A stretch of DNA of 28,110 nt from IMG/VR virus record IMGVR_UViG_651053022_000001. One strand, 5' to 3'. This document shows positions 1,451 to 17,582 of this stretch, piece by piece (positions within the stretch are counted from its first letter, which is position 1; every line of letters starts with the position of its first letter). A program made the position numbers and the translations under genes. The notes under the pieces were generated by a model, which was given only the letters and a program-made list of their open reading frames with translations, did no database searches and had not been told where the DNA came from. The DNA is from a virus (lineage: Duplodnaviria; Heunggongvirae; Uroviricota; Caudoviricetes).

Positions 1451-1470
1451 TGTCCTCATGAGTGAGGGAA

Positions 1471-1504: not shown

Positions 1505-1598
1505 CTTGTTGTTCACGTCAACTGGAAATAGGGTGCCTTTTCGACCTTTACCCTGGCAACCGATTGACGGGGAAGTTGCCTTCCCCGTCGCGGTTTCC

Positions 1599-1739: not shown

Positions 1740-1842
1740 AGCGCTTGCTCCTTTTTCGGGGAGGCGCTAACCTATCACTTGCTGAGGGTAGATGGTTAGG
1801 GCCTCGGGTTAACGTTAAAGTTGACTCGGGGCCTTTCCACAT
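1657..1842 (-). CDS. Mok-like overlapping reading frame (modulation of killing)
   Basis: 61-codon ORF in another frame that starts upstream of and fully overlaps the hok-like ORF, as mok does in hok/sok loci. Assignment is by position only; the sequence is not diagnostic. Confidence 0.4.
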   Translation of the reverse strand: MWKGPESTLTLTRGPNHLPSASDRLAPPRKRSKRYVAKIAYGHHILRDGNPHHLDAARFAV

Positions 1843-1930
1843 CTGGCCTTCGGGTATTCCCTCCGACCATCAGCCGAAAGGCACCCGCACGTAATCTATC
1901 GCTTTTTTGTTACTCCGGCAATTCTGCCTG

Positions 1931-2191
1931 TTAATTCTGAGATAAAGGCAAACTCATCTGATTGTTTCCCCTGTGTGAAGCTGGCAGATCATGCCACGGG
2001 ATACCTTCTGAAGAGTGAACGCCGGAGGCGTGTTTTGATGTGAATTTATGGAAAGCTTCCAGTGTTGAGAAGCATACGCCGCATTCCAGATTGTTACACT
2101 GGTAATACTTTTGCCGCACGGTGTTTGAATCATTTTCCGGACGACTGGTGCGGATACGGGCAGATGCGCCACAAAGCGGACAACGGAACAT
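1931..2191 (-). CDS. ogr: Ogr/Delta-family zinc-finger late-gene transcription activator
   Basis: MFRCPLCGASARIRTSR...YYQCNNLECGVCF matches the Cys4 zinc-finger layout of P2 Ogr; strong SD (aagggaggt) upstream; lies directly after gene D as in P2. Confidence 0.85.
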   Translation of the reverse strand: MFRCPLCGASARIRTSRPENDSNTVRQKYYQCNNLECGVCFSTLEAFHKFTSKHASGVHSSEGIPWHDLPASHRGNNQMSLPLSQN

Positions 2192-2231
2192 AGCGACCTC
2201 CCTTAACGTGGTGCTGCCTATTCTAAGTTGC

Positions 2232-3341
2232 TCACTCTGTTTCCGCTATCCATTCCGGGATTTTTGCCTCAAGCTCAAGCTGCGTGGTAAAACCGCTGTT
2301 ATCAATGGTGTGCTCGGCTTTTGCAATGATCCAGTCCTGATTATCAATCTCGCTTTTAAATCCTGTTACCGTGCCATGCATTTCGGGGTAGAGTTCTGCA
2401 CGTCCACGCGCCAGCGTGATGGAGAATGATGCGGCTCCGCGTTGTAGTTGCTGCCACTTTGCCGCCGCTGCGCGTCTTGCTGCCTGCTCGTTCTGATAAG
2501 TCTTGCGTAACACAAACACATTGCCTTCCGCGCCTTCCATATAATCACCTTCGCGGCTGCTGCTTTTCTCCTTTTTGGGTTTTGGCGGTTTACGGCGTTT
2601 CACGCTGACTTTTTTCTTTTTCCCGTAATTAAGATCAAGCCAGTAAGCGCGTACCCCCGTATACGCTTCGCGGTCAGCAATGCGGAACTGATGGCGATCG
2701 CCGCTGCTGCGTGTGATGGCAAACGATGGCAACGGCTGGCCCTGTGCGTTCACGCCACCGCCGGGCATGATGAATAACAGATTACCGCTTTTTACCGTGG
2801 TGATTGCGCCCAGCATTTCCGCCATGCGCGTAAGGAAGGACATGTCGCTTTCTTCGGTCTGGTCGGCGTGGTCGATTTCGATATCCATCAGCATTTCGCT
2901 GATTTGCGGTTTCAGACCATACCGATGAGCGATGGCGGATACCACACGCTCAACGGTCACATCATGCCAGGACACCTCACGTTTAACGTTAAATTCATCC
3001 CGAAAATCTGCGCTTCTGGCTGAAACAGTCAGCCTGTCCGGCGGTCCTTCGTGAGCGATTTCATCAACAATGTAAGTGCCTTTTTCTGTCAGCGGTTCTC
3101 CTTTCCAGCCAATGAGAACCGTCAGGCGCGCGCCCCGTGGCGGTAGCTGCAACTGACCATCCGCATCATCCAGCGTGATGGTGAGCTGGTCCGCCTCAAA
3201 TCCCCGGTTGTCGGTCAGTGACAGGCTCATCAGGCGCTCTGCCACGCCTGACAGCGTTTTACCCTCCGCGAGAATATCAAAATCCGGCATTTTCACGGGG
3301 TCTGTGCCCTGACTGAGCAATTGCATGGTGGTGTCGGTCAT
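2232..3341 (-). CDS. D: P2 gpD-like tail protein (late control protein D), 369 aa
   Basis: Length and sequence fit the phage late control D family; start chosen at internal Met (MTDTTMQLLSQ...) preceded by GGGAGGG; the track ORF extends to 3473 in the same frame. Confidence 0.85.
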   Translation of the reverse strand: MTDTTMQLLSQGTDPVKMPDFDILAEGKTLSGVAERLMSLSLTDNRGFEADQLTITLDDADGQLQLPPRGARLTVLIGWKGEPLTEKGTYIVDEIAHEGPPDRLTVSARSADFRDEFNVKREVSWHDVTVERVVSAIAHRYGLKPQISEMLMDIEIDHADQTEESDMSFLTRMAEMLGAITTVKSGNLLFIMPGGGVNAQGQPLPSFAITRSSGDRHQFRIADREAYTGVRAYWLDLNYGKKKKVSVKRRKPPKPKKEKSSSREGDYMEGAEGNVFVLRKTYQNEQAARRAAAAKWQQLQRGAASFSITLARGRAELYPEMHGTVTGFKSEIDNQDWIIAKAEHTIDNSGFTTQLELEAKIPEWIAETE

Positions 3342-3498
3342 CTGCTCCCTCCCTGTGCGGCATGGTCGCATGTGCGTGCGGAGGGGGTTACTGCTTTTTG
3401 TTGTCGCCGTGGCGGGAGAACGGCGCAGGGGTGAGATTACGCGCGTGGTGGGTGATGATTGTTGCCGAATCATTTAACGGATACAAGGGGCTGAAGCT

Positions 3499-4683
3499 AT
3501 GAGTGAAACTCGTTTTCATGGTGCCCGTGTCACGGAAAGTACCGACCTGGTAACAGCGATTAATGATGTTGATTCCAGCGTTATCGGTATCGTGGCAACG
3601 GCGGATGATGCGGATGCGGAGCTGTTCCCGCTGAACAAGCCCACACTGCTGACCCGCGTCAATGACGTGCTGGGAAAATGCGGGACTACGGGGACGCTTT
3701 ATCGTGCGCTTAAGGCTATCGCAGACCAGGTGAGCACAAAAGTGATCGTCGTTCGCGTGGCTGAACACAAAGAAGAAGGCGGTAGGACGCAGGATCAACT
3801 GGTTATCGGTGGTTCTGAATCTGACGGCAGCTATACGGGGATGTATGCGCTGCTTGTTGCAGAGCAGGATGAAAGCATCGGATACCGTCCGCGTATTCTG
3901 GCCGCGCCGGAGCTGGACACGGAGGCGGTGACAAAATCCCTGTGCGTGATTGCGGGTAAACTGCGCGCGTTTGTGTATGCCACATGTCATGGTTGTAACA
4001 CGATGGCTGAGGCGATTACCTACCGCCAGAAATTCAACGAACGTGAGGTGATGCTCTTATGGCCTGACTTCATCGCCTACAACCCGAAAAGTGGCAAAAA
4101 CGAAACGTTCCCCGCGCCTGCTTATGCGTGCGGCCTTCGTGCGTACATTGACCATGAGCAGGGCTGGCACAAATCGCTGTCCAACGTTCCGGTTAAAAAT
4201 GTGCTGGGGATGTCGAGGCATGTGTTCTGGTCGTTACAGGCCGAAGACAGTGATGCCAACAGCCTCAACAACAAAGAAATCACGACCATTATTCGTCGTA
4301 ACGGGTTCCGCTTCTGGGGCAACCGCACACCGGAAACGAACGCCTACATCTTTGAGGTGTATACCCGAACCGCACAGGTGCTGGCTGATTCAATTGCGGA
4401 AGCGCAGTTTGAAACCATCGACAGTCCACTGACGCCTGCGAACGTGAAGGATGTTATCAGTGCCATCAGGGCAAAATTGGATTCGCTGGTTACTGCCGGG
4501 AAACTGATTGGCGCGGAGTGCTGGTATGACGTGGTGGATAACGGCACCACGGATTTACGTCAGGGGCGTGTGCGTATTCGCTACAAATATACGCCCGTTC
4601 CCCCGCTGGAAGACATGGAGCTTTACCAGACGTTTACTGATGAATTCTTTGGTCCCGCATTTGCGGTGCTGGGAGGTGCCTGA
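3499..4683 (+). CDS. FI: contractile tail sheath protein (P2 gpFI-like)
   Basis: 394 aa with tail sheath family features; SD aagggg upstream; stop overlaps the FII start (TGATG). Confidence 0.92.
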   Translation: MSETRFHGARVTESTDLVTAINDVDSSVIGIVATADDADAELFPLNKPTLLTRVNDVLGKCGTTGTLYRALKAIADQVSTKVIVVRVAEHKEEGGRTQDQLVIGGSESDGSYTGMYALLVAEQDESIGYRPRILAAPELDTEAVTKSLCVIAGKLRAFVYATCHGCNTMAEAITYRQKFNEREVMLLWPDFIAYNPKSGKNETFPAPAYACGLRAYIDHEQGWHKSLSNVPVKNVLGMSRHVFWSLQAEDSDANSLNNKEITTIIRRNGFRFWGNRTPETNAYIFEVYTRTAQVLADSIAEAQFETIDSPLTPANVKDVISAIRAKLDSLVTAGKLIGAECWYDVVDNGTTDLRQGRVRIRYKYTPVPPLEDMELYQTFTDEFFGPAFAVLGGA

Positions 4684-5195
4684 TGGCTGTACCAAAACAT
4701 CTTCGCTTTTTTACGTTGTTTGTGGATGGTGAAAACGAAGTGGGTAAAGTGACATCCGTCACGCCGCCCAAACTGACGCGCAAAACCGACAGCTATCGTG
4801 GTGGTGGCATGATGGGAGCAGTAAGTATTGATCTCGGTCTGGACGACTCCGCGCTTGATGCGAGCTTTGTCATGGGGGGAGCTGTTCGTGCACTGTTCCT
4901 TAAGTATGGCGGCACGATTGACGGCACGCTGCTGCGTTTTGCGGGTGAATATTACACCGATGCAGAAAGCGATCTGTATGAAATCGAGATGCGCGGGCGT
5001 GTGACGGAAATTGATATGGGGGAGGCCAAACAGGGCGAAGCCACATCACACACTTACGCTGTCAAAAACACCTACTACAAGCTGAGCGTTAACGATCGCC
5101 CGCTGTGGGAAATCGACCTGTTGAACCACATCTACCGGAAGGACGGCAAGGACATTGTGCCTGACCGCATTCGTTCCGCGCTTGGGCTTGGCTGA
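4683..5195 (+). CDS. FII: tail tube protein (P2 gpFII-like)
   Basis: 170 aa, directly after the sheath gene with a 1-nt overlap. Confidence 0.9.
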   Translation: MAVPKHLRFFTLFVDGENEVGKVTSVTPPKLTRKTDSYRGGGMMGAVSIDLGLDDSALDASFVMGGAVRALFLKYGGTIDGTLLRFAGEYYTDAESDLYEIEMRGRVTEIDMGEAKQGEATSHTYAVKNTYYKLSVNDRPLWEIDLLNHIYRKDGKDIVPDRIRSALGLG

Positions 5196-5250
5196 TAAGT
5201 AATATGCAGGCGGCGCAGTGCGTCGCCTCTGACTGAAAAGGAGACAACTG

Positions 5251-5625
5251 ATGAAAGATATCGATACTGAAACCCGGAATAACACCGTAGCGGATGATGT
5301 GACGTCAGGTGAGGATATGGCTGTCGAACGTGGTGTAAAACTTTCCCGGCCAATTGAGCGTGGTGCCGAAAAAATCACATATGTGGAGATCACCGGGGCT
5401 ATTGAGCAGGCGGGATCCCTGCGTGGTCTGTCGCTGTCTGATGTGCTGAATCTGAAAGCGGATACCATGTTCACGCTGTTGCCTCGCGTGACCTCGCCAC
5501 GACTGGATGAAGTGATGATTAAAAAAATGTCGTCACGCGATTTTATTCAGTTGTGCGCTGTGGCTGTAAATTTTATGAGCGAGCCAGACTCTGGCGCGAA
5601 GAGCGTGCAGGAGACGGCAGCGTAA
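5251..5625 (+). CDS. E: tail assembly chaperone (P2 gpE-like)
   Basis: 124-aa ORF between tube and tape measure; AAGGAG SD upstream. Confidence 0.8.
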   Translation: MKDIDTETRNNTVADDVTSGEDMAVERGVKLSRPIERGAEKITYVEITGAIEQAGSLRGLSLSDVLNLKADTMFTLLPRVTSPRLDEVMIKKMSSRDFIQLCAVAVNFMSEPDSGAKSVQETAA

Positions 5626-5789
5626 TCACCCTGGTGTGCTTTGAGCACATCGAAGATCTGGTGGCGGATATTGCCGCCATTTTCAACTGGTCGCCCGCCG
5701 AAATCTTCATGATGACGCCCGGCGAAGTGGTTAGCTGGCGTGAGCGGGCGGCACTTCGCAGCGGGAATGCAGATAATGAAGACTCTTGA
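5251..5789 (+). CDS. tail assembly chaperone E+E' fusion by programmed -1 ribosomal frameshift (about 179 aa)
   Basis: The -1 frame is open from 5523 to 5789 and overlaps the 3' end of E and the 5' end of T; a canonical heptamer A_AAT_TTT at 5568-5574 is in the correct phase of E. Confidence 0.6.
5568..5574 (+). promoter_or_regulatory. candidate -1 frameshift slippery heptamer AAATTTT (E to E')
   Basis: X_XXY_YYZ pattern with zero-frame codons AAT TTT. The alternative TAAAAAA at 5520-5526 is less canonical. Confidence 0.5.
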
Positions 5790-8583
5790 CATCCGGGTCG
5801 CTTTCAGCGCCGTTGACAGGCTGACCCGGCCTGCCGAAAACGCCCGCCGCCTGATGGGGCAGTTTGGTGACTCCATTCAGCGAACGCAGGGGGCGATCAA
5901 AAATCTCGAGCGTCAGGCGCGTTCATTTGAGCGCGCCCGCGACGCTGTCAGTAAAGCGGATGCGGGTATCGTGAAAGCACGACGCCAGCTTAACGCCCTT
6001 AATCAGTTACAACGCACGGGTACAGTGCTCAGCGAAAAACAACAAAAGCTGATGCAGCAGTTAAGCACCCGGCTTGAACGCCTGAATGAATCGCGCACAC
6101 GGGAAATTCAGAAAATGCGGGAGCTTGGCGGAGAACTGAAACGCCACGGCATTTCCCTGACAGGCAGCGATAACACCATCCAGCAGGCCATCAGACGCAC
6201 CGAACAATACAACAACCAGCTTGAACGCGAACGGCAGGCGCTTGCGCGTGTAACGCAGGCTCGTGAGCGGTATTCGCGCGCGCAGGAAACCGCGGGAAAA
6301 CTGAAAACAGGTGGTGCGCTGGCAATTGGTGCGGCAGCGGCGGGCGGCTATGCTGCCGGGCGTTTTTTGCAGCCCGCGATCGGGTTCGGCAAAGAGATGT
6401 CCCGCGTTCAGGCGCTGACGCGAATCGACAAAAACAGCCCGCAGTTTAAGGCGCTGCGTGAGCAGGCGTTAAAACTTGGCTCTGAAACACAGTTTACTGC
6501 GAGTGATGCCGCCAGTGGGCAGAGCTTTCTGGCAATGGCTGGTTTTACTCCGCAGGCCATTCAGGCCGCATTGCCCGGTGTTCTTAATATGGCGCTGGCA
6601 GGTGGCGTCGAACTCGGCGAGACGGCTGATATAGGCTCCAATATCCTCACACAGTTCAACCTGACAGCCGATCAAATGGACCGGGTTGGCGATACGCTGA
6701 CAGCGGCATTCACCCGGACCAATACTGATTTACGCGCGCTGGGCGAAACCATGAAGTATACCGGTCCGGTTGCCGCAAAACTTGGTATCAGTCTTGAAGA
6801 AGCGGCAGCCATGGCCGGGATGCTTGCCAATAATGGTCTTCGTGGAAGCGATGCTGGTACGGCCATGCGCGCAAGTCTGTCCCGCCTTGCATCACCGCCA
6901 AAAGCTGCGGCTGATGCGCTGAAAGAGCTGGGGGTGTCAGTTGCTGACGCCAGAGGCAAAATGCGCCCGATGGAGGATGTGCTGCTTGATCTCTATAAGG
7001 CGACACAAAAATACGGACAGGTGGACCAGGTTTCCTTCTTCAAGGACATCGCCGGAGAAGAGGCGTTCGTTGGTTTGCAGACGCTTGTTGCGGCGGCTGG
7101 TTCAGGAGAGCTGCAAAAACTGACCAGAGAATTGCAGGGGGCAAGGGGAGAGGCCGATCGCGTTGCAAAAGTAATGGCCGATAATCTTGATGGGGACCTG
7201 AAAAATCTCGACAGCGCATGGGAAGGTCTTCGTATTCGCATCAGTGATCTGGTTGACGGTCCGCTGCGTTCTGTCACGCAGTGGCTCACGCGGGTGCTTG
7301 AAAAAATCACCTCGCTGGCGCAGGCCCATCCGGTACTGACGCGCCAGCTACTGATAGCAGGCGGTGCGTTGCTGGCAATGACTGCAACGGTTGGCTCGTT
7401 GTCGCTGGCTATTGGTGTGCTTGCTGGCCCGCTGGCAAAACTGCGTCTTGGCTTTTCCCTCCTGACCGGTTCAATGAATGCTGTCAGACTCCTGCCAGCA
7501 CTATGGGGAATGGTGACGGGTTCCGTTTCGTTACTGGGGGGCGCTATCGGGGCGTTGTTCAGTCCGGTCGGCCTTATCGTGGCTGCGCTTGCCGGAGCTG
7601 CCGTTCTCATCTGGAAATACTGGGATCCCATCAGGGCATTTTTTGCCGGGGTGTTCAGCGGGATTATGGAAAGGCTGACCCCGTTGCGCGAAACCTTTGA
7701 ACGGTTTGGTCCTGTTTTTGACGCAATCGGGAGTGGGATCAGCCAGGTGTTTAACTGGTTTAAATCGCTGCTGTCTCCGATGGAGTCCAGCAAGGAAACT
7801 CTGGATAAATGTACCAGTGCTGGCGAGATATTCGGTAACGTTCTTGGCGGTGCGTTACAACTTGTTCTGACACCTGCAAAAATGTTGCTGGATACGCTGG
7901 CGTGGATACTTGAAAAGCTTGGTGTGCTTCCGGATGAAGCGGAAAGGGCGCGCAAGAAAATCGAAGACGCACAGCGTGCGGCCATTCTTCAGGACAAGGT
8001 TGCCTTGCTTCAGGGGGACCTGGCGAAAATCAATCCGCCGAAGCCTGTGGAAAATGGCAATGGCACCGGAGGTGATAACCCCAAAGACAATAAACCGCTC
8101 ACAGACAGCAATACCGGTACGCTGCGCAGACTCAGCAAAATTGCTGATAACACAGGTAAGCTGGTTGAGGAGACGAAAAAACGCATTGGCCCCGGCGATA
8201 TTGTCTTTAAAAACCTGCCCCGAGCACTTGCTGTTCGTGGGGAGTGGCAGGAGCGGAAGATTGCGCAGGTCAGTAAGCCTGCCCCCGCAATTAATATCAC
8301 ACCCGTGGTCCCGGCTCCGCTGCCTCCGGCGCTGGTCCCTGTTGTTGCGGCCAGCTCCCGCCCGGTGGCGGAGGCTATACGATCTCCAGTGGCATCAGTT
8401 CCTGTAACTTCCCGTAACCGGGAGCCTGTTGCCTCCGGATTTGGTGGTGAAATTCATGTTCATCTGCATAACGTTGTTACGCAGAATCCCCGCGAACTGG
8501 CGAAACTGGTCGGTGAAATGGTCAGGGCAGAAATGGAACGGCGCGCCCGTGCCGGGCGTGGCAGTTTTTACGATAAAGATTGA
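5776..8583 (+). CDS. T: tail tape measure protein (P2 gpT-like)
   Basis: About 935 aa; coiled-coil N-terminal half, Gly/Ala-rich hydrophobic middle, position after E/E'. Start ambiguous (GTG 5740, ATG 5767 or ATG 5776). Confidence 0.9.
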   Translation: MKTLDIRVAFSAVDRLTRPAENARRLMGQFGDSIQRTQGAIKNLERQARSFERARDAVSKADAGIVKARRQLNALNQLQRTGTVLSEKQQKLMQQLSTRLERLNESRTREIQKMRELGGELKRHGISLTGSDNTIQQAIRRTEQYNNQLERERQALARVTQARERYSRAQETAGKLKTGGALAIGAAAAGGYAAGRFLQPAIGFGKEMSRVQALTRIDKNSPQFKALREQALKLGSETQFTASDAASGQSFLAMAGFTPQAIQAALPGVLNMALAGGVELGETADIGSNILTQFNLTADQMDRVGDTLTAAFTRTNTDLRALGETMKYTGPVAAKLGISLEEAAAMAGMLANNGLRGSDAGTAMRASLSRLASPPKAAADALKELGVSVADARGKMRPMEDVLLDLYKATQKYGQVDQVSFFKDIAGEEAFVGLQTLVAAAGSGELQKLTRELQGARGEADRVAKVMADNLDGDLKNLDSAWEGLRIRISDLVDGPLRSVTQWLTRVLEKITSLAQAHPVLTRQLLIAGGALLAMTATVGSLSLAIGVLAGPLAKLRLGFSLLTGSMNAVRLLPALWGMVTGSVSLLGGAIGALFSPVGLIVAALAGAAVLIWKYWDPIRAFFAGVFSGIMERLTPLRETFERFGPVFDAIGSGISQVFNWFKSLLSPMESSKETLDKCTSAGEIFGNVLGGALQLVLTPAKMLLDTLAWILEKLGVLPDEAERARKKIEDAQRAAILQDKVALLQGDLAKINPPKPVENGNGTGGDNPKDNKPLTDSNTGTLRRLSKIADNTGKLVEETKKRIGPGDIVFKNLPRALAVRGEWQERKIAQVSKPAPAINITPVVPAPLPPALVPVVAASSRPVAEAIRSPVASVPVTSRNREPVASGFGGEIHVHLHNVVTQNPRELAKLVGEMVRAEMERRARAGRGSFYDKD

Positions 8584-8595
8584 GGAGTCATGGCC

Positions 8596-9084
8596 ATGAT
8601 GATGATCTACGGCATGTTTGTTTTTGAGCTGCGCACGCTGCCGCATCAGCAGTTACAGCAAAACAAAAGCTGGCGGCATGTGAAAAATGAACGCGTTAAC
8701 CGTTCAGCAAGCTGGCAGTATATCGGTGCAGGTGATGATCGCATCGTTCTTTCTGGTGTGCTTTATCCTGAAATTACAGGTGGCGAAGTGTCGCTGTCGC
8801 TGCTGACCACGCAGGCGTATACAGGACGACCCTGGCCTTTGATTGATGGCGTCGGGCAGATTTACGGCATGTATGTCCTGACTGAAACGAATACGACCCG
8901 CTCCGAGTTTGATCGCTACGGTAAGGCGAAAAAGATAGAATTTTCACTGACTCTTGAACGCTGTGATGAGGATTTGCGGGAGCGCCTGCAATCCTCATCG
9001 TTCAGTGATATGCTGTCCGGCTTCAAAGATAAGGTGACATCATCTCTTAACAGCGCGGCCAGTTCAGTTAAAGGGCTGTTCTGA
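8596..9084 (+). CDS. U: tail protein (P2 gpU-like)
   Basis: MMMIYGMFVFELRTLPHQ... matches the gpU family; GAGGAG SD 8 nt upstream of ATG 8596 (alternative ATG 8590). Confidence 0.88.
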   Translation: MMMIYGMFVFELRTLPHQQLQQNKSWRHVKNERVNRSASWQYIGAGDDRIVLSGVLYPEITGGEVSLSLLTTQAYTGRPWPLIDGVGQIYGMYVLTETNTTRSEFDRYGKAKKIEFSLTLERCDEDLRERLQSSSFSDMLSGFKDKVTSSLNSAASSVKGLF

Positions 9085-9092
9085 TTTAACAC

Positions 9093-9129
9093 AAAAACCG
9101 CTAATGGTCAGATTAGCGGTTTTCATTTT
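9093..9129. terminator. bidirectional hairpin between U and the invertase remnant
   Basis: Stem ccgctaat / attagcgg flanked by an A-run and a T-run. Confidence 0.5.
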
Positions 9130-9670
9130 CCTGAGTCTGCCCGGTTGTTTCTTCAGTCTGTATATCGCCTACAGGGTGATAACGATAAATCGTCGATGTG
9201 CCAATGCCGTAAATTATTGCCAGTTGTTTTCTGTCGTGCCCGTTTTTGATTAGCCTTGCTATTTGCTCATGCTGTTCTTTTGTCAGCTTCGGTCGACGTC
9301 CGCCTGTGCGCCCCCTTGCGCGCGCTGCCGCCAGCCCGGCCAGTGTACGTTCAACAATTAATTCACGTTCCATTTCAGCCAGGGCACCCATCACGTGGAA
9401 GAAAAAACGCCCCATTGGAGAAGATGTGTCTATGCTGTCGGTCAGACTGCGAAAATTAATCCCTCGCTCCCGTAGTTCCCCGACGAGAGAAATCAGATGT
9501 TTCATGCTTCGCCCGAGGCGATCCAGTTTCCAGACAACCAGCGTGTCACCTTTTTGAAGGCGCTTTAAAGCGCGTTTTAATCCCGGTCGGTCTGTCTTTG
9601 TCCCGCTTAATTTATCTTCAAATATTTGTTCACATCCTGCACAAACAAGAGCGTTTCGTTGCAGGTCTTT
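9113..9670 (-). pseudogene. Gin/Pin/Cin/Hin-family serine DNA invertase, 5'-truncated
   Basis: Hand translation upstream of the track ORF gives KDLQRNALVCAGCEQIFEDKLSGTKTDRPGLKRALKRLQKGDTLVVWKLDRLGRSMKHLISLVGELRERGINFRSLTDSIDTSSPMGRFFFHVMGALAEMERELIVERTLAGLAAARARGR..., near-identical to Gin as I recall it from the equivalent of residue 16 onward. An in-frame TAA at 9671-9673 removes the first ~15 residues including the catalytic serine. Confidence 0.85.
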
Positions 9671-10013
9671 TTATCATTTTTTCATCATAAATACCTTCAC
9701 GAATACTTACAGCAACTCGCTCGTAAAAATTTAAAATATATTGAAATTTTCGACGCTCGGCCATTTCTTCATCTGTTATTATGCAACCATCACAAGGAAA
9801 AACATAAGAACGAAATGATTTGCCTGAACGATGCACTTGTTTCAGGGTATGCAATGACTCTATATATTGCATATCTTGCCGACTCTCAAAAAGAAAGTTG
9901 GCCGTTTGAGTTTTTTTTGCGGTACGCACATTGTAGATAATGGTTCCAATGGCAACCAAAACGCCAAGCAGAACAATAGCATTGCTGATGATTTGTAGTG
10001 TTATTGGGTTCAT
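9630..10013 (-). CDS. hypothetical membrane-anchored protein (N-terminal TM helix), 127 aa
   Basis: ORF in AT-rich DNA with a 24-residue hydrophobic segment (ITLQIISNAIVLLGVLVAIGTIIY) then a charged soluble region; last ~13 codons are read from invertase-derived DNA in another frame, so the C-terminus is probably not native. No family recognised. Confidence 0.5.
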   Translation of the reverse strand: MNPITLQIISNAIVLLGVLVAIGTIIYNVRTAKKTQTANFLFESRQDMQYIESLHTLKQVHRSGKSFRSYVFPCDGCIITDEEMAERRKFQYILNFYERVAVSIREGIYDEKMIKRPATKRSCLCRM

Positions 10014-10027
10014 CCTATTTCATCCAT

Positions 10028-10058
10028 AAAAAAGGCGGGGAGCAAATCCCCGCCTCAT
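10028..10058 (-). terminator. intrinsic terminator or attenuator hairpin immediately upstream of the 127-aa ORF
   Basis: Stem ggcgggga / tccccgcc, loop of ~5 nt; on the minus strand followed by tttttt, then the ATG of the 127-aa ORF 9 nt later. Confidence 0.5.
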
Positions 10059-10074
10059 TAGAGGTCAACGTAGC

Positions 10075-10110
10075 TTAGAAACCATCAAATTCATCATACA
10101 TTTTTTTCAT
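10075..10110 (-). CDS. 11-codon upstream ORF (MKKMYDEFDGF), candidate leader peptide
   Basis: ATG preceded by GAGGGGG SD at 5-nt spacing; stop 17 nt before the hairpin. Too short to be certain. Confidence 0.25.
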   Translation of the reverse strand: MKKMYDEFDGF

Positions 10111-10162
10111 ATCAACCCCCTCATAGAAATCATAACCACGTTTTGTGGTTTTTGTGACGTAT

Positions 10163-10191
10163 AAACTACATCAAAGGCAAGCCACGGTCAA
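10163..10191 (-). promoter_or_regulatory. candidate sigma70 promoter for the minus-strand cargo transcript
   Basis: Minus-strand TTGACC (-35), 17-bp spacer, TAGTTT (-10), about 50 nt upstream of the small ORF. Confidence 0.3.
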
Positions 10192-10210
10192 ATATATAGG
10201 CATGCTTACC

Positions 10211-10240
10211 TGCACAAAAGTGCACAAATTTGCACAATTT
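10211..10240. repeat. three phased direct repeats TGCACAA at exact 10-bp spacing
   Basis: tgcacaaaag / tgcacaaatt / tgcacaattt; a fourth TGCACAA at 10303-10309; inverted TTTTGTG copies at about 10141-10160. Confidence 0.7.
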
Positions 10241-10608
10241 TTTTGAACGACTTTTTACCCTTCCGGCCCGCATGGCGGCTGGATCCGTCAAGGATCCGTG
10301 CGTGCACAAAAAAACGCGCTTTTTCTGCGCGCAGGTGACGGGGGAACAGCCCGCGTTTCAGGGGGTAAATAGCATTCCCTGAACGATGTCGCAGAGACAC
10401 AACAGAATGGCCATATTTCTCACGCTGAGCATGAAAAAGGCGTGAGGGCTTTTGATTTGATGGGGTGAAAGGTAAGGCCGTCAAAATCGCACTGAGGCAG
10501 CGAGAACATGCAGTCAACGCGGTGGAATTGCGTAAGAGTCTGACCGTCGATGGTGGCGATAAACTGGAAGGCGTCGTGAAATTATCTGATTGATACAGGA
10601 GCTGGAGA

Positions 10609-10637
10609 GCCGGGGCATAAATTTTTTATGCCCCGGC
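10609..10637. repeat. perfect 29-bp palindrome (13-bp arms, 3-nt centre)
   Basis: gccggggcataaa ttt tttatgccccggc, about 100 bp upstream of the 174-aa ORF. Confidence 0.7.
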
Positions 10638-10736
10638 GAAGCAGCAGACAAGCGAAGCGCGTCAGCGATACGGCACCTTGCCGACCATACTTCATAAGTG
10701 CAAAATACGAGCAAAGAAATCAATGGAGGCTGTCTT

Positions 10737-11261
10737 ATGGTCATTAATTACAAGCAGTTAAGAGAAAAACGGGAGCAGGTAAAGGAGAGCTTTCGCCGCA
10801 ATGAAGATCTGACCCCGCTTGTACGCCTTGCCCAGGGCATTGTTGATGCTTATGAAATCTCGCTGGAGCTGCCATCACAGACCTGGACAGATAGCGACGG
10901 TAATCGCCAGCATTACGTTTCATGCGGACTGGAAGCAGCCGAAGGATTTCGCAGAATGCCTTTATCCCAGATCCCTGCCGCTACCCCCAAAGCACGGGGC
11001 AGCAATGATGAGCGAAAACTGACTTTTAGTATTGAAACGGTGGTTGACGACACACCTGGCGAAGTCGCGTTCGTGCACACTCCTGTTTCGATCGCAATGT
11101 ATAACGATGAAATACAGGTTCGCGTTAATAATAATATCGTGCCACTTAAAGAAGGTAATTCACCCTACACCACCGTTTGTGAAGCCATTCAATATTACGT
11201 TCTCTCTGAAATTGATAATCTCAAGCCTGACGGCACCCAGAAAATGGTTCAACTCTGGTAA
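10737..11261 (+). CDS. hypothetical soluble protein, 174 aa (cargo gene next to portal gene Q)
   Basis: ORF with GGAGG SD 7-8 nt upstream of ATG 10737 (track ORF starts at an upstream alternative start, 10698); acidic, no TM segment; no family recognised. Confidence 0.6.
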   Translation: MVINYKQLREKREQVKESFRRNEDLTPLVRLAQGIVDAYEISLELPSQTWTDSDGNRQHYVSCGLEAAEGFRRMPLSQIPAATPKARGSNDERKLTFSIETVVDDTPGEVAFVHTPVSIAMYNDEIQVRVNNNIVPLKEGNSPYTTVCEAIQYYVLSEIDNLKPDGTQKMVQLW

Positions 11262-11292
11262 AAAGGACAGCCCCATCACGGGGCTGTTTTTT
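11261..11292. terminator. bidirectional terminator shared by the 174-aa ORF and portal gene Q
   Basis: Stem cagcccc / ggggctg with A-run before and tttttt after; the Q stop codon lies in the loop. Confidence 0.6.
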
Positions 11293-12322
11293 CATCAAGA
11301 AGAGCATAAGAGTTAAAACGGATCACCTCTTCGCCAAGCCAGTCATTGATGTGCTTCATAGCCTCCATAACGGGCATCAGCTCGTTAATTGCGTAAACCC
11401 GCGCTGCCTTCTCCACATCGCCAAACGCACTTTTTTCGCCCGGCATCGCCCCCATCAGTTGCGGCGGAACGCGGTGCGCAGCCAGCACATCATCACGGGA
11501 TGCCGCCTTAACATTCATGAATTCATCTTTTGCGGTGATCTGCTGGAACGGCAAAATTTGCACCCCCTCTTTGCCCCCGTTGGGCGCATGAATGAGCACG
11601 TTTTTAAACGCACCACCACCACGTGCCCCCTGTAGCGTTTCTTTCAGGGAGTCCATGCTTTCGCGGTTTACCTGCGCTGCACCGATGTAGATGATGCACC
11701 CGGCGTGGGATCCGTTGTCGTAGTACAGTTTTCTGAACATGTCCGCCGAATGAGAAAGGCTGGCCGAGAGTAATGCGCCAAGATATTCCGGCATGCCGTA
11801 GATTTCCTGGTTAATATCCGGATTCATCAGGTGGCACACTTTGCCAGGACGAAACTGAAACGCGTCCTTGCCATCCTGCACATACCACCATGATTCAAGA
11901 TCGCTTCCGCGTCGCATGTATTTCGCCAGGGCGTGCCGTAATTTAAGCGGTTCGCCGAGCATATTGCTTCGAAGCTCAAGGAATGCGTTACCGAACACAA
12001 ACCAGTCCAGCGCCAGCGCCGAGAAATCCTGCCGGGAAAGCAGCGGGTGCGGGATGTAGCAACCGAGTAATACATTGCGCTTAAAGTAAAGCGCAGACTG
12101 ATGCCAGGACGTTTGCCGGGCTGCTCTTGCCAGACCGTACCAGTCCACCGGGGTTTCATACCACCGCCCGTTATCAGCACAGTACATATTGTCCAGCAGG
12201 TCATGCCCGGTCAGGCGATAAGGACCATCAAATGTGAATGCACTGAGCGATGATTCTTTCCTGAGCGCATCAGCGAGATCAATGCGTGAACTCATGCGCA
12301 CTTTTTTATTTTTTCTGCTCAT
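11276..12322 (-). CDS. Q: portal protein (P2 gpQ-like)
   Basis: About 345 aa, matching the P2 portal family in size and sequence; adjacent to and co-oriented with terminase P. Confidence 0.9.
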   Translation of the reverse strand: MSRKNKKVRMSSRIDLADALRKESSLSAFTFDGPYRLTGHDLLDNMYCADNGRWYETPVDWYGLARAARQTSWHQSALYFKRNVLLGCYIPHPLLSRQDFSALALDWFVFGNAFLELRSNMLGEPLKLRHALAKYMRRGSDLESWWYVQDGKDAFQFRPGKVCHLMNPDINQEIYGMPEYLGALLSASLSHSADMFRKLYYDNGSHAGCIIYIGAAQVNRESMDSLKETLQGARGGGAFKNVLIHAPNGGKEGVQILPFQQITAKDEFMNVKAASRDDVLAAHRVPPQLMGAMPGEKSAFGDVEKAARVYAINELMPVMEAMKHINDWLGEEVIRFNSYALLDEKTAP

Positions 12323-14073
12323 CAGAACTCCATAACCATGAAACGCTCGTTTTCTCCTTCGCCGCCAATTGGTTCGTTAATGACAGCAAGCATGGTTGCC
12401 CACGCAAGGTCGCCGTGGCTGATCCCCCTCGCGCGGTCCGTTTCGTAAGTGATAAAGCCGCCCGGTGTTTTCACCTTACGCACGGCGTTAAAGGCCGCGA
12501 CCAGCTCGCGTTCGGCGCGATCGTATTCCCACCGCCCGGCACGCATTATTTGCAGCATTTTCAGTACCAGCGACCGTTTTGATGACAGCGTGAAGGTGTA
12601 CGGAATAGCAGCAGGGAAAAACCGCTTCACTATCTGATAAACAGCCTCCCCGTTCCCGCCCGTCACATCAATGCCGATGTGTTCCACGTTGTAGCGACAC
12701 GTGAACTCTTCAATGACTCTGGCCTGTTCTTCAAACTCCAGCCCCTGAACGCGTCGCGTCTCCACCGTTCGAAAACGGCCGCCAGGAACAGCCGGAGGAA
12801 CCACCACGGACACAGCGCCGCTGTCGCCGTTGCCACTACTGCCGTTTGCGTCATACCCAATCCATACCGGACGATTCCCCATCGGGCGGGGAGCAAAAGG
12901 TTTCCAGTCTTTCCAGTCGTCGTATCCGTCAACACCGCAGCCAATCAGGATATTCAGGTTAAATGCCGATTCCCCTTCGCGGACAAACTCACACATATAG
13001 AGATTGAGGAACTCGTCTTCGGTGTTTTCATCACGAATTTCGTCGATATCGGTGTGTTTCCAGCCGTGATTAACCACATCTTCCAGCGTGACAATTTGCC
13101 GCCACGTCCGGTCAGGGCAGATAAGCCCATTATGCAGCGTTTTCCAGTCCACAGAAAAACGCTGGCGTTTATGCGAGGCCTTTTTCTCGTTCCAGCGGTC
13201 GCCGTTCCAGTAGGCGTATGCCTCGTGCGTTTCGGTGGATGGCGTGGAGAAGTAGGTGCGCCGCAGTCCGCTGAGGGTTGCCATAGCGCCAGCCACCTTG
13301 CGCAGTTCAGCAAAGCGACTGACCCAGAAAAATTCATCAAAATAAAAATTGCCCGTATAGGACTGTGCCGACGCAGCAGAAGTGCCGAGAAAATGCAGCT
13401 CTGCGCCGTTGGAGAGGATGATTTTATCGCCCCCTTTCAGCTCCACATCAACTTCAGCCGCGGCCTTCTGAATAATGCTTTTAAACTGGAACGCCTGACG
13501 ACGCGACGCAGACAAAAAAATCTGGTTACGCTGGTAAGGTTGCGCCACATCGTCACGCAGCGCCATCAGCAGTGCTTCCTGTGCAAAATACCAGGTCGCC
13601 CCAATCTGTCGGGATTTCAGGATCATCCTGTTACGTATCCCGGCTTCCCTGCAAAGGGTCAGGGAGTCAAACCAGCCCCGCTGATGCCACTCCAGCCTGC
13701 TGATGATTTTTTCCCGCAGTGCGGCAATCTGTTCCGGCGTGAAATGATTTTTGAGTTTTTTCGCCCGGCCTTTCTTTCCTGCGGCCATCACATCCGGCTG
13801 GCCATCATGCAGCTTTTTAAGCTGCCGGGTCAGCAGGTCTATTTCCTTAAAGTCACCGCCTGTTTTATTCTGTTTTTCAGTAAGCTGGATGAGGCGCGCA
13901 TCGATGGACTGCGTGACACGCTGCACGGGTGGCGTTTCATCCCACTGGTCACGTTTTTTCCACGCATAAATCGTGTTCGGGTTTATTCCCATCAGACGTG
14001 ATATTTCTGCGGGCGGATAACCCTGCCAGTAAAGTTGCCGCGCACGCTGGCGCACAAAAGCGTCCTGAATCAT
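12322..14073 (-). CDS. P: terminase large (ATPase) subunit (P2 gpP-like)
   Basis: 583 aa; size, position and sequence consistent with P2 gpP; divergent from O. Confidence 0.92.
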   Translation of the reverse strand: MIQDAFVRQRARQLYWQGYPPAEISRLMGINPNTIYAWKKRDQWDETPPVQRVTQSIDARLIQLTEKQNKTGGDFKEIDLLTRQLKKLHDGQPDVMAAGKKGRAKKLKNHFTPEQIAALREKIISRLEWHQRGWFDSLTLCREAGIRNRMILKSRQIGATWYFAQEALLMALRDDVAQPYQRNQIFLSASRRQAFQFKSIIQKAAAEVDVELKGGDKIILSNGAELHFLGTSAASAQSYTGNFYFDEFFWVSRFAELRKVAGAMATLSGLRRTYFSTPSTETHEAYAYWNGDRWNEKKASHKRQRFSVDWKTLHNGLICPDRTWRQIVTLEDVVNHGWKHTDIDEIRDENTEDEFLNLYMCEFVREGESAFNLNILIGCGVDGYDDWKDWKPFAPRPMGNRPVWIGYDANGSSGNGDSGAVSVVVPPAVPGGRFRTVETRRVQGLEFEEQARVIEEFTCRYNVEHIGIDVTGGNGEAVYQIVKRFFPAAIPYTFTLSSKRSLVLKMLQIMRAGRWEYDRAERELVAAFNAVRKVKTPGGFITYETDRARGISHGDLAWATMLAVINEPIGGEGENERFMVMEF

Positions 14074-14227
14074 TGCTCCCCCTGAGTAATTACAGGAAGA
14101 TTACCCGCGCGCGAAACTGTTCTCCTTAACCCTCTGTTCTGACTGTTTTCTTACAACAAAAGCCCTTTGTATCAGCCTGTTACGCTTTGCCATCATGACT
14201 GAAGAACCAGTCAGAGGGGCAAAAACT

Positions 14228-15064
14228 ATGGCTAATGAAAAAAAGACATCCCGCAAAAAGTTTCGCGTGGCTGTCTCCGGATCAACTGTTGATGGCCGTG
14301 AAATCAGTCCGGTGCATCTGCGTGAAGCCGCCGAGAACTTCAACCCGGATGTTTACGCTGCCCGCGTGAACGTTGAGCACTATCTCTCGCCATGTCCGTC
14401 AAGCGAATTTTCCGCAATGGGCGATGTCACCGCACTGAGTACGGAAGACATTACGGAAGGTCCGCTGGCCGGACGTACTGCGCTGTATGCAGAAATCGAA
14501 CCGACCGAGCGCATGAAGCAGCTTGTCGCTGACGGCAAGAAAATCTATTCCAGTATCGAACTGCACCCGCAGTTCTCCGTTAACGGGCGCGCCTATCTGG
14601 TCGGGCTGGCGATGACCGACACCCCGGCAAGCCTGGGCACTGAGCGCCTGAAATTCACGGCACAGCAACGTCAGGCGGTGATGACGTTCAACAGTATCCA
14701 GGGTGAAGCACCGCTTATCTCCGAAGCCATCGAGTCTGAAATCATCGAAATGGCAGAACAACGCCAGGAAGAAGGCACCCAGTGGTTTAACCGCGTAATG
14801 GGGATTATTGGTCGTGGCCGCAAAGCGGATGACGCCAGTTTCTCCCGAATTCAGGAAGCGGTGGAAGGCGTTGCAACGTCACAGGCCGACATTATCGACC
14901 GTTTTAATGTGCTGGAAACCCGCCATCAGCAGGACCGCCAGAAAATCACGTCACTGACCACAGAGCTGACAGCATTGAAGGAAAAACTGCGCACGCAGGA
15001 CGGCGATCCGCAGAACCGCTTCACCGCAACGGGCGCAGCCTCCGACCAGCTGGCTGACTTCTGA
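14228..15064 (+). CDS. O: capsid scaffolding protein (P2 gpO-like)
   Basis: MANEKKTSRKKFRVAVSGSTVDGREISPVHL... resembles the gpO N-terminus; start at ATG 14228 with SD; track ORF starts at 14195. Confidence 0.88.
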   Translation: MANEKKTSRKKFRVAVSGSTVDGREISPVHLREAAENFNPDVYAARVNVEHYLSPCPSSEFSAMGDVTALSTEDITEGPLAGRTALYAEIEPTERMKQLVADGKKIYSSIELHPQFSVNGRAYLVGLAMTDTPASLGTERLKFTAQQRQAVMTFNSIQGEAPLISEAIESEIIEMAEQRQEEGTQWFNRVMGIIGRGRKADDASFSRIQEAVEGVATSQADIIDRFNVLETRHQQDRQKITSLTTELTALKEKLRTQDGDPQNRFTATGAASDQLADF

Positions 15065-15087
15065 TAAGACAAAGGAGCAAATTTTTT

Positions 15088-16140
15088 ATGAATCTGGTGA
15101 TGTCAGATATTACCCGCAACAAGCTGGGTTGCTATATGGCGCAGCAGGCGTCGCTTAACAATATCCCGGTATCTGCACTGGTATCGCGATTTACCGTGGA
15201 ACCCGCGGTGCAGCAGCGTTTTGAAAACGCCTCAAAGGAAAGTACCGAATTTACGAAAAGAATTAACGTGATCGGCGTGACCGACCAGAAAGGCGAAAAA
15301 ATCCTCCTGGACACCACCGGGCCAATTGCGCGCACGAATAGCAGTTATGACGGCATCAAACGCCGTAACCCGAATAACGTGATCGATATGAAGTCTCGTC
15401 AGTACCAGTGCGAACAGGTGAACTACGATACCTTTATTTCGTACCCACAGCTTGATACCTGGGCGGCCCACAGCGATTTTCAGTCCCGTATCAGTACACA
15501 GATCGCCCGGCAGGTAGCGCTTGATCGCATCATGATTGGCTTTAACGGCACATCCCACGCCTACGAGTCTGATTTTCACACCAACAAGCTGCTTCAGGAC
15601 GTTAACGTGGGCTGGCTGGAGCACATCAGAACCGATGCCAGCGAGCGCGTAATGAATGACGTGACGCTGACCTCCCGCAACATGGACAACACTGTGGCGC
15701 ACGCGGGTAAGTATGCGAATGCCGATGCTCTGGTACAGGATGCGCGCTCATCCCTGCTGGATGAATGGCACAAGGAAGCTGACGACCTCGCGGTGATTAT
15801 GGGGCGCAACCTGTTTAACTCGCTGCGTCTGCCCGTGCTGAACAGCATCAGCGGCCAGAATCCCAATGCGGAATTACTTGCCGGGCAGCTCATCCTGTCA
15901 TCGCGCACCATTGGCGGGCTGGGCGTGTTCCTTGCGCCGTTCTTCCCGGATGCAACGATGCTTATCACCTCGTTCAACAACCTGTCGATTTACTGGCAGA
16001 AAGGTTCAATGCGTCGCCTGATGAAAGACGAGCCGGAATACAACCGCATCGCCACCTACCAGTCCATCAATGACGCTTATGTCGTTGAAGACTATGGCAA
16101 GTGCGCGATGGTCACTGGCCTGAAGTTCGCCGACAGCTAA
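15088..16140 (+). CDS. N: major capsid protein (P2 gpN-like)
   Basis: 350 aa with several blocks matching gpN as I recall it (FTVEP, GEKI, PFFPDATMLIT, VVEDY); AAGGAG SD. Confidence 0.93.
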   Translation: MNLVMSDITRNKLGCYMAQQASLNNIPVSALVSRFTVEPAVQQRFENASKESTEFTKRINVIGVTDQKGEKILLDTTGPIARTNSSYDGIKRRNPNNVIDMKSRQYQCEQVNYDTFISYPQLDTWAAHSDFQSRISTQIARQVALDRIMIGFNGTSHAYESDFHTNKLLQDVNVGWLEHIRTDASERVMNDVTLTSRNMDNTVAHAGKYANADALVQDARSSLLDEWHKEADDLAVIMGRNLFNSLRLPVLNSISGQNPNAELLAGQLILSSRTIGGLGVFLAPFFPDATMLITSFNNLSIYWQKGSMRRLMKDEPEYNRIATYQSINDAYVVEDYGKCAMVTGLKFADS

Positions 16141-16185
16141 TCAACTCACGGCGGGCATCATGCCCGCCTGTAACGGAGAGAAAAA

Positions 16186-16986
16186 ATGATTACTCCTGCA
16201 CAACAACACTGGCAGAACGTGATGGCACAGCGCGCAGGCCGGGCGAATGAAGGTGTGGACCACGCCGCGTGTACCGCGCATGAAGAGGTGCTGTATCGTC
16301 TGCGTCTGGCACAGGCCAGGCTAAAGGCCATACAGGCCAGAAGCGCGAAAGCCGCCATCAAAAAAGAGTTGTTGCCGGACTTTTCCGGCTGGATTGAGGG
16401 AACGCTGGAGGCTGACGGCGGGCAACAGGACGAAGTAATTGCCACGCTGATGGTGTGGGCGATTGACTGCGGCGATCTTCCGCTGGCGCTGCGTATTGGT
16501 GCATATGTGGTCCGTCACAACCTCATCATGCCGGATAACTTTGGCCGTACTGCTGCCACGGTACTGACCGAAGAAATCTGCAACCCGGTACTGACGCAGG
16601 CTGGGACGGATGCCGACGCGGATTTATCCGCCTTTATCGAACCACTGGACACACTTTGGGAAATTATCGCCAACCAGGACATGCCGGACGAAGTGCGCGC
16701 CAAATTATGCAAGGCGTGTGCCTTTGCCCGTCGTGGCCTGACCGATGCAGACAACATGGCCTCATCACTGAAGCTGCTGCGCGAAGCGATGCACCTGAAC
16801 CCGAACGCAGGTGTGAAACGCGAGATTGCAACCCTTTCCCGCGCCCTGAAAAAAGCCGATTCCGCAGCCGAACCAGAAGACGCCAGCGCACAGCAGGCGC
16901 AGGACGAAAGCAGCAAAAGTAAAAAGACAACGCGGAAGCCTGCAACACGAAAAACCACCGCGACGCAGAAGGCAAAGCGCGGTTAA
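16186..16986 (+). CDS. M: terminase small (endonuclease) subunit (P2 gpM-like)
   Basis: 266 aa; DMPDEVRAKL block and Lys/Arg-rich C-terminus as in gpM. Confidence 0.9.
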   Translation: MITPAQQHWQNVMAQRAGRANEGVDHAACTAHEEVLYRLRLAQARLKAIQARSAKAAIKKELLPDFSGWIEGTLEADGGQQDEVIATLMVWAIDCGDLPLALRIGAYVVRHNLIMPDNFGRTAATVLTEEICNPVLTQAGTDADADLSAFIEPLDTLWEIIANQDMPDEVRAKLCKACAFARRGLTDADNMASSLKLLREAMHLNPNAGVKREIATLSRALKKADSAAEPEDASAQQAQDESSKSKKTTRKPATRKTTATQKAKRG

Positions 16987-17087
16987 CGACTGACCCCGTC
17001 AGCGGGCGGCGTGCGCGGTGTTCCGGTTTGACTCCGTGACCGTTTACACCGCGCACCCACCGCCCGATTTTTTCAGGAGTGAACCCC

Positions 17088-17582
17088 ATGAGTATGGTTG
17101 CCAGAACTAACCCCGGCCCCGCAGAGGACGACATCACCGACACCGATGATGGCGATACCCGTATTTCAGCGGGTGCATTCTGGCCGGATATTGTGCTGCG
17201 CGAGCTGCGTCTGGCGGTACGACTGCCGGGCCGCGTGACCACCTCCCGCCTGCTGCATACCGCCACCGGGGCCATAGCACACGTTACCCGCGAGCTGGAA
17301 GCATGGCAGCAGGAACAACAGGCGGCTGGCTATCAGACGCTGGCCGATGTTCCGGCCCCTGTAATTAACGGAGAAAGCGTCAATCTCTGGCACTGGCGCA
17401 ATGCTGTTTATACCGCCACACGCGCCCTGATTCTGGAGCGTTACCGCGATGCGGACACAACGGACAAGGGCGACCGCCGGGCGGACGCACTGGATATACA
17501 GACATCGGATTTGTGGCGCGATGTGAGCTGGGCCATCTCTGACATTCTGGGACGACCGCGAATGTTTGCGGAGCTGTGCTGA
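17088..17582 (+). CDS. L: head completion/stabilisation protein (P2 gpL-like)
   Basis: 164 aa; CAGGAG SD 8 nt upstream of ATG 17088; stop overlaps the X start. Confidence 0.85.
   Translation: MSMVARTNPGPAEDDITDTDDGDTRISAGAFWPDIVLRELRLAVRLPGRVTTSRLLHTATGAIAHVTRELEAWQQEQQAAGYQTLADVPAPVINGESVNLWHWRNAVYTATRALILERYRDADTTDKGDRRADALDIQTSDLWRDVSWAISDILGRPRMFAELC

Follow-up and report, generated by a model that had tools for sequence, protein, structure and literature searches.

Introduction

Site-specific inversion by recombinases of the Gin and Hin type depends on an ordered nucleoprotein assembly. Two recombinase dimers, placed on inverted sites, combine with a Fis-bound enhancer that lies in the 5′ part of the recombinase gene to form the invertasome. 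Within this assembly both sites are cleaved, by way of a phosphoserine link, and rotation follows. Truncated pseudogenes of the Pin/Gin type also occur in defective E. coli prophages, pinH of K-12 being an example, and have no invertible partner. The Hin enhancer is a 65-bp element approximately 100 bp from one crossover site (PMC3798978). In isolates of E. coli ST131, reversible tail-fibre inversions have been described together with a DNA invertase in the prophage considered here, 'Entero_P88' (preprint 10.1101/2022.05.07.487787).

An intact version of the locus considered here is provided by the prophage of E. coli ST131 strain JJ1886, which is sited between dmsA and serS. In phage 503458 the genes FI, FII, E, E′, T and U are followed by a 199-aa invertase encoded on the other strand, and then by the invertible fibre genes and by H, I and J. 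The JJ1886 prophage displays the same succession of T, U, invertase and invertible fibre segment, as do all 10 of 10 further loci that carry the invertase. The two crossover sites of the intact prophage occupy positions 35973–35998 (gixL) and 38731–38756 (gixR) of L003, the JJ1886 prophage locus, and are located at the outer ends of the arms of a 170-nt inverted repeat. The first lies within the tail-fibre gene H and the second just upstream of the invertase gene. The intact invertase flips the gixL–gixR segment of approximately 2.76 kb, thereby exchanging the fibre's receptor-binding end and the fibre chaperone.

Overall organization of the window

The window, that is the whole stretch of 28,110 nucleotides analysed, begins with serS, followed by ogr-D-FI-FII-E-T-U and an incomplete invertase gene, then by a partial DUF4760 gene, Q-P-O-N-M-L...V-W-J-I and a partial H, and finally by gnd. 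Its main components are:

Positions 1–1293, plus strand: serS, the normal right-hand chromosomal flank of the prophage.
Positions 8590–9084, plus strand: the gpU tail gene (Pfam Phage_P2_GpU, E = 5.5e-39), by synteny the gene that usually adjoins the invertase among these phages.
Positions 9669–20071, minus strand: block c1, comprising part of the DUF4760 gene, portal Q, terminase P, O, N, M, L, lysis genes and the 5′ part of an esterase gene.
Positions 20072–20965, plus strand: an esterase insert of 894 nt, with joint J3 between 20071 and 20072, in frame at a codon boundary.
Positions 25269–26504, plus strand: the truncated tail-fibre gene H, 409 of its 661 codons plus two foreign codons, ending at joint J2.
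Positions 26496–28110, plus strand: the gnd block, consisting of 112 nt from the 3′ end of the O25b glycosyltransferase gene and then gnd, 100% identical to ST131.

The P2-type late gene order FI-FII-E-T-U-invertase is present, as in a P88-like prophage, and DNA identity of the window to P88, 503458, P884B11 and the JJ1886 prophage is 95–100%. All five segments that make up the window are 99.99–100% identical to ST131 references. The first of them, window 1–9668, extends from the start of serS to invertase codon 16 and corresponds to JJ1886 946,020–955,687 with no mismatches in 9,668 nt. Block c1 is inverted relative to this serS-to-invertase block. Outside the joints, a single 1-nt intergenic indel (at 16163) and two mismatches are the only differences between the window and the references. 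A scan of the window against Rfam gave no matches.

Two parts of the prophage have no BLAST match in the window. One is L003 8500–20000, from the integrase to the C-terminus of DUF4760, in which annotation places the repressor, replication and partition genes. The other runs from L003 35936 to about 38854, between the H and invertase breakpoints, a length of approximately 2.9 kb. From the mapped positions of gixL and gixR this missing piece amounts to the invertible segment with 50 bp on the H side and approximately 110 bp on the invertase side. The fibre tips too are absent from the window. A complete P88-like prophage would carry integrase, repressor and replication genes, a full H, a fibre chaperone and the invertible segment, and the window does not hold this set. 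Neither does it hold, in cis, two inverted 26-bp sites of the gix/hix type and an invertible segment; both sites are present in intact relatives.

The invertase remnant

The features around the truncated gene are:

Positions 9094–9123, strand not assigned: a terminator-like hairpin where the U and invertase genes converge, a candidate from a consensus scan only.
Positions 9113–9667, minus strand: the Gin-type invertase remnant, codons 16–199 and the stop codon, with no start codon, promoter or Ser9.
Positions 9671–9673 (TAA) and 9674–9676 (TGA), minus strand: two stops in the invertase frame, in DNA derived from DUF4760.

Translation of the minus strand over 9113–9703 gives FVKVFMMKK, the two stops, and then KDLQRNALVCAGCEQ...TQENENR with a terminal stop. 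A lysine and then Asp16 of the invertase directly follow the two stops, and the open stretch downstream of 9671–9676 comprises 184 residues. The first-pass annotation had described a Gin-family invertase cut at codon 16, and the translation of residues 16–199 bears this out, as does the Pfam Resolvase profile (PF00239), which is matched from position 18 to 144 of 145 with E = 8.4e-43. The C-terminus matches HTH_7 (Pfam, E = 2.9e-13), so that the remnant shows the pairing of a Resolvase domain with a C-terminal HTH_7 that typifies the Gin/Hin/Pin/Cin invertases. Residues 16–199 are 100% identical to those of the intact 199-aa JJ1886 invertase, WP_000905061.1, and the DNA from codon 16 onwards is unchanged with respect to the intact prophage.

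What is missing is residues 1–15, MLIGYVRVSTNDQNT. These contain Ser9, which, following established knowledge of serine recombinases, we take to be the nucleophile. Nothing in the window matches the invertase 5′ end, and no frame encodes MLIGYVRVSTNDQNT; the loss of the N-terminus with its catalytic serine, noted at first reading, is thus confirmed and extends to the start codon. The remnant lacks both the catalytic serine and the complete open reading frame with a start codon that belong to a Gin/Hin/Pin/Cin invertase. Its first in-frame start is Met70, making the longest conventional open reading frame 130 aa (9113–9505). A functional 130-aa product beginning at Met70 was considered and appears unlikely, as there is no catalytic serine and no ribosome-binding site is obvious by eye upstream. 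The 'short' invertase of 130 aa that is listed in many public assemblies arises from start-codon calls or from frameshifts in otherwise canonical loci.

Could the invertase be supplied or assisted from elsewhere in the window? The first-pass annotation had proposed a search for intact invertase copies and gix-like sites. There is no second invertase in the window, nor any gix-like site, whether three or fewer or eight or fewer mismatches are allowed. With Ser9, the start codon and the promoter gone from the remnant, and with both gix sites and the invertible segment absent, inversion is impossible in the window. Judged by its sequence, the feature is a dead 3′ remnant of the tail-fibre invertase of an ST131 P88-like prophage (Xuanwuvirus, P2 family).

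The position next to U, in place of one beside an invertible tail-fibre segment, had been taken as anomalous. Adjacency to U is the norm in this family, as 503458, JJ1886 and the 10 of 10 further loci attest. The absence of the segment from the other side of the gene is indeed abnormal.

The junction with DUF4760

Two features define the point of truncation:

Positions 9666–9668, strand not assigned: junction J1, a 3-nt microhomology, tct on the plus strand, common to the invertase and DUF4760 sides.
Positions 9630–10013, minus strand: a hybrid open reading frame of 127 aa, comprising DUF4760 residues 1–116 of 165 and 11 out-of-frame residues from invertase DNA.

In a megablast search of phage genomes the region falls into exactly two parts. 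Window 8500–9668 is 99.8% identical to Xuanwuvirus phages (P88-like, Peduoviridae), in which it covers tape measure, tail protein and DNA invertase. Window 9666–11400 is 100% identical to other P2-family records, there annotated as hypothetical proteins and portal. The BLAST blocks of the two sides overlap at 9666–9668. On the invertase parent the sequence reads ...gttgcaggtct and continues with gtattctggtcat...; on the DUF4760 parent it reads ...gtaagatgttct and continues with ttttatcatttt...; in the window ...gttgcaggtct is followed directly by ttttatcatttt.... When both intact parental loci are compared with the window at this point, 'tct' is all that they have in common.

Local BLAST locates both sides in the same prophage. 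Window 8218–9668 corresponds to L003 40305–38855, reversed, and window 9666–20071 to L003 20001–30405, forward, with 99.99% identity and one 1-nt indel. The two sides of J1 are about 18.8 kb apart in the intact prophage and in opposite relative orientation, and J1 is therefore an inversion-type joint. In the window the invertase gene is cut inside codons 15/16 and is connected, by way of the 3-nt microhomology, to the DUF4760 gene of its own prophage at codon 116. The hybrid open reading frame matches the Pfam DUF4760 profile from position 2 to 101 of 141. When PADLOC was applied to DUF4760 and its neighbours, the only result was a weak Csx27-like match to a 280-aa neighbour located outside the window.

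These observations alter the interpretation of the truncation. The first-pass annotation had pictured a gene in an odd place beside U, decapitated by foreign AT-rich DNA. The in-frame TAA at 9671–9673 is there, with a TGA at 9674–9676 in addition, and so is the switch in base composition, GC falling from approximately 0.55 (0.54–0.56 over 9200–9499) to 0.345 over 9600–9799. The truncation and the AT-rich switch on which that picture relied are real. The partner DNA is not foreign, however; it belongs to the DUF4760 gene carried by this very ST131 prophage, is contiguous with the portal and terminase genes, and from 9666 on matches ST131 genomes at 100% identity. We regard the foreign-DNA explanation as scarcely credible. 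The stops at 9671–9676 are not mutations of the invertase gene but another gene, DUF4760, read out of frame. Recovery of the N-terminus by correction of a sequencing error had been named as an outcome that would refute the truncation. This is excluded, as the DNA past the joint is another part of the prophage, matched at 99.99% over 10.4 kb.

The breakpoint itself had been assigned to 9671–9676 and attributed to recombination or deletion. A recombination breakpoint it is, placed within 3–8 nt of its true position at 9666–9668. A simple deletion is rejected because the partner block is in inverted orientation, and J1 is moreover one of three private joints.

Two further joints

The second joint, J2, falls between 26495 and 26496, where codon 409 of H (L003 35935) is followed directly by the terminal part of the O25b glycosyltransferase gene that precedes gnd, with no microhomology (0 nt). 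The breakpoint in H precedes the gixL centre by 50 bp. The gnd block beyond it is 100% identical to ST131 strain 4/1-1 at approximately 2.26 Mb, and in reference genomes lies about 1.3 Mb from the prophage.

At the third joint, J3, the 894-nt insert follows residue 348 of the DUF6645/SASA esterase native to the prophage. It matches, at 100% identity, the SASA esterase gene in a lambdoid ST131 prophage at approximately 1.454 Mb, of which it supplies residues 42–339, and the product is a 923-aa protein with two SASA domains. The left breakpoint coincides exactly with the point at which the esterase paralogues change from approximately 78% identical to identical, with 0 nt of identity at the joint. 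The right edge is inside sequence that is identical between both paralogues.

Origin of the joints

Several questions should be addressed in considering how this arrangement came about. By what process were the ends joined? Was the invertase itself responsible? Did the joints form in a cell or during the making of the sequence?

Homologous recombination is excluded at J1, at J2 and on the left of J3 since the identity at these points is 3, 0 and 0 nt, respectively. Site-specific recombination at gix or quasi-gix sites was likewise rejected, the breakpoints being 50 and approximately 110 bp outside gix and the partner breakpoints scoring 3–8 compared with 32–33 for true sites. Most likely, we infer, the ends were joined by a homology-independent process (end joining) or by template switching. 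The large chromosomal inversions reported for ST131 in the literature are mediated by rRNA operons and are unrelated.

A less direct involvement of the invertase can be envisaged. In an aborted inversion, double-strand cleavage at both gix sites might have released the segment, after which the ends would have been resected by approximately 50 and 110 bp and joined elsewhere. The missing piece of approximately 2.9 kb, equivalent to the gixL–gixR segment with 50 bp and approximately 110 bp of flank, is what such a process would remove, and by analogy with Hin, whose enhancer is about 100 bp from the nearest crossover site (PMC3798978), the invertase cut may fall near the corresponding position. 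The joints are not at gix cores, though, the scores just given identify no convincing gix-like site at the partner breakpoints, and at least two further independent breaks would be needed. We consider this sequence of events improbable. An extension of it into one catastrophic event, with the segment released by a cleaved or otherwise stalled invertasome and the resected ends repaired to distant loci by homology-independent joining or template switching, including a stalled esterase-paralogue intermediate and the end of the O-antigen cluster, appears improbable also. Were it true, this single-event reading would entail a terminus-spanning inversion of approximately 1.3 Mb and a novel two-domain esterase, and would offer a natural bacterial example of phase-variation machinery triggering chromothripsis-like restructuring.

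Searches for the joints in other sequences were negative. Neither J1, J2 nor J3 occurs in 5,426 complete E. coli genomes. GTDB representatives and JGI metagenomes contain neither J1 nor J2, and IMG/VR does not contain J1. The three chimeric open reading frames have no match in an exact-protein index. The layout of two SASA domains was not found among the proteins scored in a homologue search, where query coverage reached at most 63% and one candidate of 912 aa proved to contain a single module. As none of the three joints was seen in the public collections searched, there is no independent confirmation of them in a living cell. Whether they arose in a cell or in the making of the sequence we judge to be about evenly balanced.

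If the joints are real, they would record a complex rearrangement in an ST131 cell, either an 18.8-kb inversion and then one of approximately 1.3 Mb, or one event of multiple breaks or template switching. In the stepwise route the first inversion would involve the stretch bounded by invertase codon 15 and DUF4760 codon 116. A second inversion, with one breakpoint at H codon 409 and the other at the end of the O25b cluster, would place the remnant beside gnd, and a templated insertion from the esterase paralogue would complete the arrangement. After two inversions the invertible segment would be found, together with the int-A-par block, beside the O-antigen cluster elsewhere in the genome, and they predict a reciprocal joint, CTGTTGTGTAAGATGTTCTGTATTCTGGTCATTTGTTGATACC, connecting the C-terminal side of DUF4760 to the invertase N-terminus.

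Several features are consistent with such a history. The orientations of the serS-side and gnd blocks fit an inversion between approximately 0.958 Mb and 2.261 Mb. On the K-12 map serS is at approximately 0.94 Mb and gnd at approximately 2.10 Mb, nearly symmetric around dif at approximately 1.59 Mb, and inversions of this kind are tolerated by cells; at K-12 positions, then, the near-symmetry of serS and gnd around dif favours a real event. Two of the breakpoints bracket the invertible segment within 50–110 bp. At J3 the left breakpoint occupies the boundary of paralogue identity and the reading frame is kept. Finally, short-read contigs typically stop at the inner edge of the 170-nt inverted repeat, which argues against simple concatenation; a typical draft contig (L015) ends there and not at codon 16, and a join of concatenated short-read contigs is accordingly disfavoured.

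Against a real rearrangement, no second genome carries any of the joints. E. coli lacks classical NHEJ and joints with 0 nt of microhomology are rare. It is also improbable that three events should affect one 35-kb prophage with no accompanying point mutation. Formation of the joints in an ST131 cell is accordingly a tentative reading, to which we give somewhat less than an even chance.

Formation outside the cell, with a living strain that carries the intact prophage, merits comparable weight and is held just as tentatively. The sequence could be a chimera produced in amplification, library preparation, assembly or scaffolding, or it could be a construct. Near-perfect identity of all five segments to ST131 references (99.99–100%) is in keeping with this, as is the finding that all three joints are private and have only 0–3 nt of homology. 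Three of them in 28 kb is far above normal and unusual in a natural isolate. Chimeras from strand-displacement amplification typically show joints of the inversion type that connect nearby sites through a few nucleotides of microhomology. On the other hand, graph assemblers mis-join at shared k-mers and not at 0–3 nt, the usual contig ends at this locus fall in the inverted repeat, and the breakpoints coincide with biologically meaningful boundaries.

Whichever way the joints were made, one account of the feature is very probably correct as a whole: a non-functional 3′ remnant of an ST131 prophage invertase, attached through a non-homologous, inversion-type joint to the prophage's own DUF4760 gene, this being one of three private joints by which the prophage has been scrambled. 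Taken alone the remnant is of little importance. It is a further case of invertase inactivation in a damaged prophage, and the switch to which the gene belonged has already been described for the ST131 prophage. The practical value is as a flag, since the window carries three private, homology-free joints in 28 kb and brings serS beside gnd. Caution concerning the source assembly is advisable before synteny is read from it, before the prophage is counted as intact, and before the 923-aa two-SASA esterase or the hybrid DUF4760 open reading frame is annotated as a real protein. If the joints are real they would represent a large, repeat-independent inversion in a pandemic clone.

Comparison with known systems

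The intact homologue of the remnant is clearly related to Gin, matching the Gin crystal structures 4m6f and 3uj3 with E values of about 1e-99 (1.4e-99 for 4m6f). The remnant had been called near-identical to Gin as far as the C-terminus. For the catalytic domain that description is apt, with one mismatch to Mu Gin across residues 16–120. It does not extend to the DNA-binding (HTH) domain, which is diverged although HTH_7 is also present, and overall identity to Mu Gin is 79%. Gin, Cin of P1, Pin of e14 and Hin of Salmonella are Fis/enhancer-dependent invertases; without Ser9 and the sites, the remnant cannot work like Gin.

The intact JJ1886 invertase, shared with the Xuanwuvirus phages P88, 503458 and P884B11, is the closer comparison. 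Residues 16–199 of the remnant and the U/T flank are 100% identical to it, and the gene occupies the same place adjacent to gpU. Relative to the intact JJ1886 locus the remnant has lost codons 1–15, the GTG start, the promoter, gixR, the invertible segment and gixL. Its upstream neighbour is the truncated DUF4760 gene, where in the intact locus it is the fibre segment.

Truncated invertase genes in decayed prophages are already known, and only the unique joint is new here. In contrast to decayed-prophage pseudogenes of the pinH type, the remnant displays no point-mutational decay and is situated at a fresh, private joint of the inversion type.

Additional private joints

Two further joints in the window are, like that between the invertase remnant and the DUF4760 gene, private, that is, absent from every collection searched. 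The second lies between positions 26495 and 26496, with these features on its two sides.

25269-26504, H', truncated tail-fibre gene H, which ends at the joint
26704-28110, gnd, downstream of the joint

Gene H is broken off at codon 409 of 661 and joined, with 0 nt of microhomology, to the O25b glycosyltransferase gene, of which the final 112 nt are present, upstream of gnd. As a result serS and gnd are 25 kb apart in the window, as opposed to about 1.3 Mb in ST131 references.

The third joint, between 20071 and 20072, falls within the ORF 19028-21799. Here an 894-nt SASA-esterase module from a lambdoid ST131 prophage has entered a P88-type DUF6645/NanS-like gene with the reading frame preserved, and the joint is placed at the exact boundary where the two esterase paralogues become identical. 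The product, of 923 amino acids, carries two SASA domains; no such two-SASA protein was found in the protein collection searched or in the complete E. coli genomes (5,426).

The truncated DUF4760 gene and other features

In intact prophages the DUF4760 gene is paired with a gene of unknown function encoding 280 amino acids, and the pair lies within an AT-rich accessory slot that separates the partition genes from the portal gene. The partner, which gives a weak Csx27-like match in PADLOC (E = 1e-5), is missing from the window.

9630-10013, minus strand, hybrid DUF4760 ORF, 127 amino acids, a truncated gene
10032-10056, minus strand, strong terminator-like hairpin, 10 pairs of which seven are GC, followed by a T-run
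18969-20348 of JJ1886 locus L003 (the intact P88-like prophage of this ST131 reference strain), region of the intact DUF4760 and 280-amino-acid genes

Since the hairpin stops approximately 19 nt ahead of the DUF4760 start codon, there is no space for the gene to have a promoter of its own. The positions at which linear phage records end suggest a cos site near 10211-10258.

Annotation of JJ1886 places two genes between serS and gene D.

About 1600-2230, Hok/Gef-family toxin gene and ogr

No Rfam match, to a Sok-type or any other RNA family, was obtained throughout the whole window. Across 10.4 kb the sole small difference from JJ1886 is one extra C at 16163, in an intergenic stretch with capsid gene N on one side and terminase gene M on the other.

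Short invertase calls in public assemblies

The collection's index lists, in 392 of its blocks, a 'short invertase' of 130 amino acids that is identical in sequence to window 9113-9505. Of the 10 public-assembly loci read (L006-L015), four have the whole N-terminus intact, and there the short call is probably a start-codon artefact; the intact JJ1886 gene starts with GTG. The other six carry changes that may be either true inactivations or homopolymer errors of long reads: five have frameshifts within the first third of the gene, as assembled, and in L015 the N-terminus is intact, yet an in-frame stop occurs farther downstream.
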